Positions 15,005-18,329 of a stretch of 64,000 nt of DNA are shown here, piece after piece. The number at the start of each line of letters is the position of its first letter. Within the stretch, counting starts at the first letter, position 1. Origin of the DNA: Scenedesmus sp. PABB004. Lineage: Eukaryota. A program made the translations under genes and the position numbers. The DNA lies in assembly GCA_014905635.1 (NCBI GenBank), contig JABVCE010000002.1:992001-1056000 (forward strand), in the 5' to 3' direction. The notes beneath the pieces were generated by a model, which was not told where the DNA came from, searched no databases, and saw nothing but the letters and a program-made list of their open reading frames with translations.

Positions 15005-15853
15005 TCACTTGATGTCCACGATCTTGATGACGCTCGCGTTGCCGATGCGGTGCAGCGCGACGATGCTGTCGCCCTTGGCGCAGTAGCGCGCGCGCTTGGC
15101 GTGCTCAATCGCGGCGGCGAGGATCTCGTCGGTCGTGTCGGTGTCGGTCGCGCGCGCGCTGCCCTCGGCGAGCAGCGGCAGCAGGCCGCGCGTGACGAGG
15201 CACTGCCGCGCGGGCGCCTCGTTGCTGCACGTCCACGTAAGGCTGTCGGTCGTGAGCACCGGCACCGCGACCGTGAGCACGGGCACGAGCGGCCGGTACT
15301 TGGCGACGAGGCGGCCCGTCGACCCGCCGCGCGTGAGCACGACGATGAGGCTCGCGTGCACCTTGTGCGCGGTGCGCACCGCGCTGCTCGCGAGCGACTC
15401 GAGCGGCGACATCGGCAGCGGCGCCTGCTTGAGGATGTTTTTGAACATCGCGTAGTAGTCGAGGCTCGCCTCCGCCTCGCGGCAGATCTTGGTCATGACC
15501 TAGGGCGGGGCGGGCGGCGGGGCGGGCGGCGGGGCGGGCGGCGGGGCGGCGGGGCGGGCGGCGGGGCGGGCGGCGCGCGGTGTCGTGTGTGAGGGCGTGC
15601 GGGCGGGCAGAGGGGGTCGGCGGGCTGGGGCCCCCGCACGGCGGGCGGCAGCCGCGGCGCGCGCGCCCGCGCGCGCCGCGCCCCGCGCGCGCCGCACCTT
15701 GACCGCCTCCACGGGGAACGCGCCGGCCGCGGTCTCGCCGGAGAGCATGACGCAGTCGGTGCCGTCGAGCACCGCGTTGGCGACGTCGGTCGCCTCGGCG
15801 CGCGTGGGGCGGGGGTTCTTGATCATGCTCTCAAGCATCTGCGCGGCGCAGCG

Positions 15854-15888
<35 letters not shown>

Positions 15889-17721
15889 AGGGCGCGGGGC
15901 GGGGGCGCGCGCGGCGTCGGCGGCGCGCGCGGGCGCCCGGCGCGGGCGCGCGCGGGGCGCCCGGGTGCTGCGGCTGCAGCGGCGGCGGCGGCTGCAGCGG
16001 CGGCGGCGTGCGCGCGCGCGCCTGCGTGGCGGTGATGACGGGCTTGCCGTTGTAGTTGCACTTCTGGATCATCATCTTCTGCGCCAGGAAGATCTGCGGC
16101 AGGCAGGCGGGGGGCAGGCAGGCGTCGGGCGCCGCGCGCGGGGCGGCGCCCGCCGCTGGCCACCGCCGTGCCGCGCCGCGCGCGCGCGCCGCGCCGCCCC
16201 GCCCGCGCACCTTCTCGGTGGGGATCTCCATGCCGAGGTCGCCGCGCGCGACCATGACGCCGTCGGTCTTGTCCAGGATCTCGTCAAAGTTCTGGATGCC
16301 CTCCTGGTTCTCCACCTTGCTGATGATCTTGATGTAACGCCCCCGCTCGCCCAGCACCTGGCGGCGGCGTGGTGGCGCGCGCGCGGCGCTCGGCGGCGCG
16401 CGGCGCTGCCTGCCCGCCAGCGGCGCCTGCGCCGCGCCGCGTTGGCCGGCCGGCCCGCCTGCCCCCGCGCCCGGCTCGCCCCACGCCCCACCACCCTCCC
16501 CGCGTCTGCGTGCGTGTCACCTCGCGGATGAGGTCGAGGTCGCTGCCCTTGCGCACAAAGCTCGCAGCGATGAGGTCGATCTCGTGCGCGACGCCCCAGT
16601 TGACGATGTCGTCCACGTCCTTCTCCGTGAGCGTGGGCAGGTCGACGACGACGCCGGGGAGGTTGACGTTCTTGCGCTCGCCCAGCATCGCCGTGTTCTT
16701 GCACCGCGCGCGCACCGTGCCCGCGGCGGGGTCGGTGCTGATGACCTCGAGCACGATGCTGCCGTCCGCGCACAGGATGCTCGCGCCCGGCTGCACGTCC
16801 TGCGCGAGCTTCTTGTAGCTGCGCGCGCGCGGCGGGCGCGGCGGCGGGCGCGGCGGCGCGGGGTCAGGGGCTGCAGCGCGGGGGGCGGGGGGCGGGGCGC
16901 TGCTGGACAGCGCGGAGCGCAGCACCGCAGAACTCCAGCTGAACGCGATTTGTGAACAGCAAAAAGGCATCATCTGCCGCTCGCAGATCGCGTTCAACTG
17001 GAGTTCTGCAGTGCCGGCTGGCCCAGGCCCAGGCCCCGCAGCTGTGCGTTCAGCCCGCGCGGCTGCTGCTCCCGCTGCCGGCGCGGCCGCGCGCGCGCCC
17101 GGCCGTGCGGCGCGGCACGACCATGCAGACCGCCGGCGCGCGCGCGCGCCGCTGTCCGTCCGATGTGCGGCTCGTGCGGCGCAAATCAGACCGACAGCGG
17201 CGCACGCGCGCGCCGGCGGTCTGCACGCCGCGCGCCGCCGTCGCTTTCGCGCGCGCCGACGCTGCTGCTGCCGCGCGGCCGCCGCGCGCCGCTGCTGCGC
17301 GCCGCTGCCGCGCGCCGCGCGCTGCGCCCGCCGTGCGCGCCCCGCACCTCATGGCGATGAGGCCGTTGTTGCCGGCGGCGGCGTAGTCGGTGGTGATGGT
17401 CACCTCCTGGCCGGAGACGAGCTGTACCGGCTTGCCGCCCTCGAGCATGCCGGTGCGGATCTCGGGGCCCTTGGTGTCGAGCATGACGGCGCACATGATC
17501 TTGGTGTTCTCCATGGCGCGCCGCAGGTTGTCCAGCGTCTCCTTGTGGTACTCGTGGGAGCCGTGGCTGAAGTTGAAGCGCGCGACGTTCATGCCCGCAC
17601 GCAGCAGCTCCTCAATCACCTCGACGGCGCGGCTGGCGGGGCCGAGCGTGCAGACGACCTTGGTCTTGCACACCGAGCTCGGCGTGCCCGCCAGCACCGC
17701 ATCGAGCCCCAGCTGCACCAT
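15005..17721 (-). CDS. PYK: Pyruvate kinase, cytosolic plant-type
   Basis: [102 protein letters not shown] at 17721, TGA at 15005. Confidence 0.97.
15855..15886. repeat. Poly-G tract (32 nt) in a pyruvate kinase intron
   Basis: Uninterrupted G run on the + strand. Confidence 0.9.
16922..17014 (-). ncRNA. Candidate intronic pre-miRNA-like hairpin A (40-bp stem, 13-nt loop)
   Basis: Arms 16922-16961 and 16975-17014 are reverse complements at 34/40 positions. Four of the six differences are G-U pairs on the transcribed minus strand. The hairpin is seen directly; the miRNA function is inferred. Confidence 0.5.
17124..17225 (-). ncRNA. Candidate intronic hairpin B (46-bp stem, 10-nt loop)
   Basis: Arms 17124-17169 and 17180-17225 are reverse complements at 42/46 positions. 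Two of the four differences are G-U pairs on the minus strand. Confidence 0.45.
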
Positions 17722-18329
17722 CAGAGCGGCCCCCGCGCGCGGGGAGAGGGCGGGGCGAGTGGAGCTGCCGGCGTCCCGGGCGGGCGGCGCGCGGGGCGAC
17801 GGGCGAGCGGGGAGCGCACGGGAGGGGCGGGAGTGGGGGCGGTGGCGCGGCGGGGCGGGCAATGGAGCGCGGGCCGGGCGGCGGGAGCTCGGCAAGCGTT
17901 AGGTAGCGGCGTCGAACCCTGGCAATGCCCCAAACCGCCCCGGCTGCTCGAGAAGCCCCGGGACAGCAGCCAACGCGCGCGCCCGGCGGCAGCGGCGTCG
18001 CGGGGCCGTGTTTTCGGGAGGCCCTGCCGCCATCGCGGGGCGTGCTCGCGGCTCCGCGCCGACACACGCCCGCGCGGCGCGGGATGGCAACCCGCGATTC
18101 ACGCACACTGCTAAACGTCCCGTGGCGCTGCGCCGGCACGGCCGCGCCCGCCGCTGCCGCCGCGCCCGCTGAGCGCCGTGCTGCGCCGCGCCCGGCCGCC
18201 GAGCTTACACGCACCCTGGGCCCTGCCAGCAGGCGCACACCATTCGCCGGCAACCCGCACGCCCTGCCAGGGCCCGCTGCGGCGCAGGACGCCTGCCACC
18301 GCACGGCCGCTGCGATCCCGACGTCGCCG

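Follow-up and report, generated by a model that had tools for sequence, protein, structure and literature searches.

Intron-derived small RNAs are known from the Chlorophyceae. According to Valli et al. (2016), 9 high-confidence microRNAs (miRNAs) of Chlamydomonas reinhardtii derive from introns and require DCL3, and the intron that carries the miR1157 stem-loop (intron 22 of Cre12.g537671) still works once it has been moved to another gene (PMC4817775). The precursors there, from which DCL3 makes miRNAs and hairpin siRNAs, are long, near-perfect stem-loops that lie in sense orientation within introns of protein-coding genes, and the miRNAs of Chlamydomonas are reported not to be phylogenetically conserved (PMC5511227). 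Hairpins with other origins have also been described. Template switching at replication forks is known to give rise to perfect hairpins, and to near-perfect inverted duplications without target-site duplication, and these could supply the raw material of new miRNA genes (PMC8794818, PMC10710096). In Volvox carteri, also a chlorophycean alga, Smith and Lee (2009) reported short, hairpin-forming palindromic repeats of organelle origin that are AT-richer than nuclear DNA and have degenerate, apparently inert copies in the non-coding part of the nuclear genome; as given in that report, the repeats average 50 nt, with stems of at most 37 nt and TAAA/TTTA loops of 3-5 nt (PMC2670323). MITEs and foldback transposons can likewise take the form of a short intronic palindrome.

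Here we describe two hairpins, A and B, that are hosted by a gene for a cytosolic-type pyruvate kinase on the minus strand of a 64-kb stretch of green algal DNA (the window, by which we mean the whole stretch analysed). The alga belongs to the Chlorophyceae, as does Chlamydomonas, and hairpin A resembles the DCL3 precursors: it is a long, near-perfect stem-loop, it reads in the sense of the protein-coding gene whose intron contains it, and it is not conserved in relatives. It differs from the Chlamydomonas loci in that the same intron holds two hairpins, in the GC content of about 79% of the genome in which it lies, and in being known here from sequence alone. We tentatively favour the reading that hairpin A is a young intronic inverted duplication that could act as a Dicer-type substrate, by analogy with the DCL3-dependent, intron-derived miRNAs of Chlamydomonas.

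Translations of 17721..17350 and 16820..16500 correspond to residues 1-124 and 125-231, respectively, of the pyruvate kinase of Monoraphidium neglectum (P0009), and three more exons follow downstream, reaching position 15008 (Table 1). Exon 1 has its closest protein matches in a transcriptome entry (91% identity), the Monoraphidium enzyme (85%) and those of Chlamydomonas and other Chlorophyceae (76-81%), which places the alga in the Chlorophyceae, probably in the Sphaeropleales; by its pyruvate kinase protein, Monoraphidium is the closest named relative. The junction between exons 1 and 2 is found spliced in RNA contigs of related algae (metagenome run X4, records 20 and 21). With 529 nt, intron 1 far exceeds every other intron of the gene in length, the second measuring 163 nt and the third 117 nt. 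Hairpin A lies 103 nt upstream of the acceptor of this intron, and about 50 nt downstream of the hairpin in the RNA there is a CTGAC motif that we take to resemble the branch-site consensus CTRAY. The initial annotation had placed hairpin A on the strand of the pyruvate kinase transcript, and this was borne out, since the hairpin is inside an intron of the pre-mRNA and in sense orientation within a transcribed gene, as is the case for precursors of the Chlamydomonas DCL3 type.

Table 1. Features of the pyruvate kinase locus that hosts hairpins A and B (positions are those of the window).
Feature	Position	Strand	Description
Pyruvate kinase exon 1	17348..17721	-	Start codon to donor; 84.7% identical to P0009 (Monoraphidium neglectum), residues 1-124
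Pyruvate kinase exon 2	16518..16818	-	Translation match
Host intron 1	16819..17347	-	529 nt, GT..AG, phase 2 (between AG and C of a Ser codon)
Intron 2	16355-16517	-	163 nt; junction in RNA contigs
CTGAC motif, branch-point-like (CTRAY)	16863..16867	-	45 nt upstream of the acceptor; read from the sequence
Hairpin A, sense (pre-mRNA) fold	16916..17019	-	RNA folding and repeat finder; core arms in the RNA: 5' arm 16975-17014, 3' arm 16922-16961
Candidate 21-mer with 5' U, 5' arm of hairpin A	16990..17010	-	Read from the sequence; speculative
Hairpin B	17115..17233	-	Repeat finder and RNA folding; core arms 17124-17169 and 17180-17225

The whole of intron 1 is predicted to fold at -415 kcal/mol with its ends paired, and the corresponding z-score (-12.7) is inflated because shuffling destroys the arrangement of a G-rich 5' part and a C-rich 3' part. 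Over 44 nt, the stretches at the two ends (16818-16861 and 17302-17345) have 75% complementarity, and this predicted fold pairs them with each other; with a 5' end rich in G and a 3' end rich in C, such pairing may follow from composition alone.

The core of hairpin A consists of two arms of 40 nt each with a spacer of 13 nt (repeat finder), and 34 of the 40 positions are Watson-Crick complementary (85%; repeat finder and script). The six differences, all of them transitions, are at 16926/17010, 16939/16997, 16950/16986, 16953/16983, 16956/16980 and 16958/16978. On the minus-strand RNA they give four G-U pairs and two C/A mismatches, with 38 of 40 positions paired, and on the plus-strand RNA two G-U pairs and four A/C mismatches. 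The initial annotation had reported the same arm identity, six transitions and four versus two G-U pairs by strand, and our recount agrees with it on each figure; the 21-mer that it had singled out does exist in the sequence, on the minus strand (17010..16990), as a speculative RNA. In the predicted sense fold a total of 45 bp form, with a base of 33 consecutive pairs (2 of them G-U), above which lie two C/A mismatches (1x1), the upper stem with its 2 + 10 pairs (2 G-U) and a 9-nt loop; a single bulge is located on the 3' side. The minimum free energy (MFE) was -79.1 kcal/mol (z -13.5) for the minus strand and -65.0 kcal/mol (z -8.9) for the plus strand, none of 200 dinucleotide shuffles being as low in either case, and sense folding is about 14 kcal/mol stronger than antisense.

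Hairpins of this strength are rare in the surrounding DNA. We scored stems with +1 for a match and -2 for a mismatch, allowed loops of at most 45 nt, and took a score of at least 20 as defining a strong hairpin. Only A (score 22) and B (score 34) reached 20 in the 64-kb window, and both are inside the same 529-nt intron; the runner-up, with a GC content of 93%, had a score of 19. Among 20 simulated windows that preserved composition, the top score was 17 and no hairpin reached 20, and the pyruvate kinase loci of relatives (338 kb) contained 1 hairpin with a score of at least 20. Hairpin A is real and far beyond what chance would produce.

The base composition of hairpin A sets it apart from its surroundings. 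Its GC content is 0.55, compared to 0.874 in the remainder of the intron and 0.75-0.81 in every 2-kb bin of the window (about 79% overall), and of all 93-mers in the 64 kb none has less GC and only 0.03% are equally low. Outside both hairpins, intron 1 has 87% GC and is made up of low-complexity repeats. The contrast in AT-richness that the initial annotation had pointed out is confirmed by these values, and, as had been claimed, low-complexity GC pairing does not account for hairpin A. The low GC fits either youth or sequence constraint, because with just 6 of 80 arm positions changed a neutral hairpin A would still be far from the composition of the genome. Introns showed no G+T skew on the sense strand (262 versus 267 in intron 1), so that a transcription-linked mutation bias is neither evident nor required. 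The GC content of the window is extreme for a eukaryote, with introns near 0.87, and in the window only conserved exons and hairpin A fall below 0.6.

Hairpin B is GC-richer than A (GC 0.775), and its arms are complementary at 42 of 46 positions. Its predicted sense fold has 41 consecutive base pairs followed by G/G and U/C mismatches next to the loop, and the MFE was -115.1 kcal/mol (z -12.0) in sense and -100.5 kcal/mol in antisense orientation, a difference of 14.6 kcal/mol in favour of sense. Two of the differences between its arms are transitions, both of which give G-U pairs on the sense RNA, and two are transversions. A and B are 109 nt apart, and the occurrence of a pair of strong hairpins, otherwise rare, within one intron means that they are not independent accidents. 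Furthermore, the sense stems of A (17010-16998) and B (17225-17213) open with a similar 13-mer, which consists of UGCAGA and 4 further matches (10/13; p = 0.006 versus shuffled arms, in a test that was post hoc). Shared ancestry, terminal repeats in common or one guide 5' end used by both could each explain this resemblance. Over their whole length, A and B cannot be aligned: their local alignment has a score of 14, which 329 of 500 shuffles also attain. Extended palindromes (78 bits for A and 131 bits for B) were also considered and set aside, as their flanks add no more than do control GC-rich segments of the window.

The differences between the arms had been taken in the initial annotation as favouring the transcribed strand and, on that ground, as evidence of selection on RNA structure. 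Because a transition in a palindrome gives a G-U pair on one strand and an A/C mismatch on the other, the neutral expectation is one half per strand, and at least four of six G-U pairs on a given strand arise with p = 0.34. Pooling the transitions of A and B yielded 6 versus 2 G-U pairs in favour of sense (p = 0.145), and for sense G-U pairs among all 10 differences p was between 0.07 and 0.26, depending on the null, that is, on the assumed share of transitions. The count of four versus two and the better fold of the sense strand thus stand, but the bias itself lies within chance, and the argument for selection that was built on it did not hold for A or for A and B combined. From one hairpin alone, a count of four versus two says nothing about selection; the bias in the same direction in both hairpins is suggestive, and the claim of selection is not established. 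The position of the differences departs weakly from an even spread, since all 10 of them lean to the loop, at a mean relative position of 0.69 (p = 0.029), with the consequence that both hairpins retain a long perfect lower stem.

To compare the locus with those of relatives, we used 80 metagenome pyruvate kinase loci that were collected by a search with exon 2 and have at most 83% protein identity. No sequence resembling hairpin A or B was present in these 80 loci, a blastn-short search with the intron and both hairpins returning GC low-complexity matches only. Homologues of exons 1 and 2 are contiguous in 79 of the 80, with a gap of exactly 2-7 unaligned codons; several loci are almost intronless, and others, for example L008, L011 and L012, have introns at other places. 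One metagenome relative, L078, has an intron of 163 nt at the identical site and phase, without a hairpin, and its boundaries close to residues 297 and 345 likewise coincide with those of the gene in the window, in a comparison that covered 12 of the 80 loci. Since site and phase are common to L078, the position of the intron is old in at least part of the lineage, and the hairpins are later, lineage-specific additions to an older intron, judging from this comparison of sequences. An introner (intron-generating transposon) was rejected, as the intron site is not new, being common to L078. The interval in question is 2344-2499 of L078 versus 16819-17347 of the window, where both have a phase 2 intron that splits the Ser codon next to ...IAM / ...LAI.

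Searches for further copies gave the following results. Hairpin A has no second copy in the 64-kb window, and where intron 1 resembles other parts of the window, it does so through low-complexity GC repeats that match about as well as control segments do. A 23-nt arm pattern had 0 exact matches in metagenome, viral and prokaryote genome collections, from which the species itself seems to be absent. The translation of the open reading frame that spans the hairpin (residues 103-150), when compared with predicted proteins of 194-620 residues, shared words with 39 candidates, none of which had E ≤ 10. Around A and B we found no direct repeat, such as a target-site duplication, at any plausible element boundary.

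These data have to be weighed against the possibility that hairpin A is inert palindromic DNA, the trace of an event at the DNA level, with no RNA role, no selection on pairing and arms that are decaying; it could stem from template switching at a replication fork, from an inserted foldback or MITE-like element of small size, or from a palindromic repeat of organelle origin. We regard this as nearly as likely as a Dicer substrate. The hairpin is missing from the pyruvate kinase loci of all 80 relatives, its GC content of 0.55 within an intron of 87% GC fits a recent arrival of lower-GC DNA that 6 changes in 80 positions are too few to have altered, the strand bias does not exceed chance, and the terminal 13-mer shared by A and B across 109 nt could mean that one element family inserted twice or that the insertion was composite. 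A recent insertion at the DNA level explains the low GC, the clustering of the hairpins and their shared stem base equally well. Like the hairpins ascribed to template switching, A is a near-perfect inverted duplication without target-site duplication, and it is single-copy within the 64-kb window, but local template switching copies its neighbours, and with an 87% GC neighbourhood, to which A is compositionally foreign, it fits B and not A. A and B recall MITEs or foldback transposons in that their terminal 13-mers are alike in the manner of subfamilies, and terminal inverted repeats are trivially present because the entire element is palindromic; unlike such elements, they lack a target-site duplication, and no further copy appeared in the window or in the collections scanned. 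The Volvox repeats, which as reported are AT-richer than nuclear DNA, are shorter than hairpin A, which measures 93-104 nt with arms of 40-45 bp and a loop of 9-13 nt whose sequence is unrelated. In addition, the differences between the arms are clustered by the loop and not evenly spread, which argues against simple decay.

An effect on splicing and an error in the assembly have also to be considered. If the hairpins were aids to pre-mRNA splicing, the folding of about 100 nt in each would shorten the effective distance from the donor to the branch site. Intron 1 is indeed long at 529 nt relative to introns 2 and 3 and to the orthologous intron of L078 (163 nt), both hairpins have the donor on one side and the branch-like CTGAC motif on the other, and the fold of the whole intron is strong, with paired ends. 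Nevertheless, this would account for the tolerance of the hairpins and not for their origin or for the composition of A; the G-rich 5' and C-rich 3' layout inflates the z-score for the full intron, the intron ends are just 75% paired through low-complexity GC sequence, and the idea is without comparative support, so that we consider it decidedly unlikely. Far less credible still is that the hairpin is an artefact of assembly or library preparation, for instance a fold-back chimera. Some library methods do create palindromes. Nine sequencing runs, all metagenomes, contained part of the stretch, each with a share of 0.05-0.11, and an independent assembly across the hairpin was not found among four of them (X1, X2, X4 and X6), which contain mostly exons of related algae; yet a fold-back artefact should reproduce its template exactly, and the arms differ too much for this (6/40 positions in A and 4/46 in B), while the surrounding gene is intact and has canonical splice sites.

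The reading of hairpin A as a Dicer-type substrate is suggested by the stronger sense folds of both hairpins (-79.1 versus -65.0 kcal/mol in A and -115.1 versus -100.5 kcal/mol in B), by the rarity of such hairpins, their location in one intron and their intact lower stems, by the six of eight transitions that pair as G-U in sense, by the similar 13-mer with which both stems open, by the low GC of A, and by the precedent that the intron miRNAs of Chlamydomonas provide within the Chlorophyceae. We did not count the lack of conservation against it, because the miRNAs of Chlamydomonas are themselves reported not to be phylogenetically conserved. In this proposal, A and B would be lineage-specific inverted duplications that were born inside an older pyruvate kinase intron, would be transcribed together with the pre-mRNA, and would be freed with the spliced intron. 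Each RNA would then present a long near-perfect stem (33 and 41 unbroken basal pairs in A and B, respectively), an imperfect top and a loop of 9-10 nt, and a Dicer-like enzyme could cut A into small RNAs of about 21 nt, which would make the locus a proto-miRNA locus. Hairpin A, whose sequence is unique and of high complexity, is more likely than B to yield a specific guide. Its structure, position in the intron, rarity and composition are read directly from the DNA; its processing, and any target or function that it may have, we infer with the Chlamydomonas loci as a guide. A microRNA-like role for A is plausible on the strength of this analogy.

A bolder version, in which A and B form a cluster of two functional intron-derived microRNA-like genes that share the 5' end UGCAGA... 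within a glycolytic housekeeping gene, and in which selection on the guide keeps the GC of A low despite a strong pull of the genome to GC, is unlikely; were it true, base composition itself would become a means to find functional non-coding RNA in genomes of this kind. If small RNAs do arise from the locus, the intron-miRNA pathway of Chlamydomonas would be extended to a second green algal order and to an extreme base composition, and low-GC islands within introns of 85-90% GC would provide a rule for further searches. If the hairpin is inert, it would represent ordinary young palindromic DNA that an intron tolerates. A literature search on RNAi genes in the Sphaeropleales gave no answer as to the presence of Dicer-like or Argonaute proteins.

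Comparison with known RNA families was made over 16700-17450. An Rfam scan of this interval at E ≤ 10 returned sub-threshold matches only, the best being mir-375 for A (15.8 bits; gathering threshold 46.7) and mir-2450 for B (21.8 bits; gathering threshold 59), and ARAGORN found no tRNA. We compared the loop with the C box consensus of snoRNAs and found a match at 6 of 7 positions, but by eye there was neither a D box nor a terminal stem, and a snoRNA was rejected. Complementary targets were sought in the window, and none was found for A: the 87 21-mers of hairpin A gave 1 site with 4 mismatches, compared to 0-16 sites for shuffled controls, and the 1109 sites obtained for hairpin B (controls 32-400) were dismissed as reflecting GC low complexity.

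Two further features of the arms of hairpin A were noted. In one reading frame (an 11-residue peptide, then Q or R), five of the six differences are synonymous; we put the probability of this at about 0.02 in a single frame and at about 0.1 once all six are allowed for, and a coding origin of the arms was set aside, the pattern being treated as probably due to chance. The best match in the window to part of the 3' arm (16920-16944) lies in the opening codons of the pyruvate kinase gene itself (17692-17718, minus strand), with 22 of 25 positions identical, a 2-nt gap and a score of 27. The next matches elsewhere have scores of 26 and 25, so that the match is not significant, and we did not take it to support self-targeting or an origin of A from the host gene.

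Finally, a contig of 416 nt from a freshwater metagenome (run X1) matches 17336-17746, that is, exon 1 and its upstream flank, with 5 differences, which indicates that the alga or a close strain is present in such samples at very low depth.
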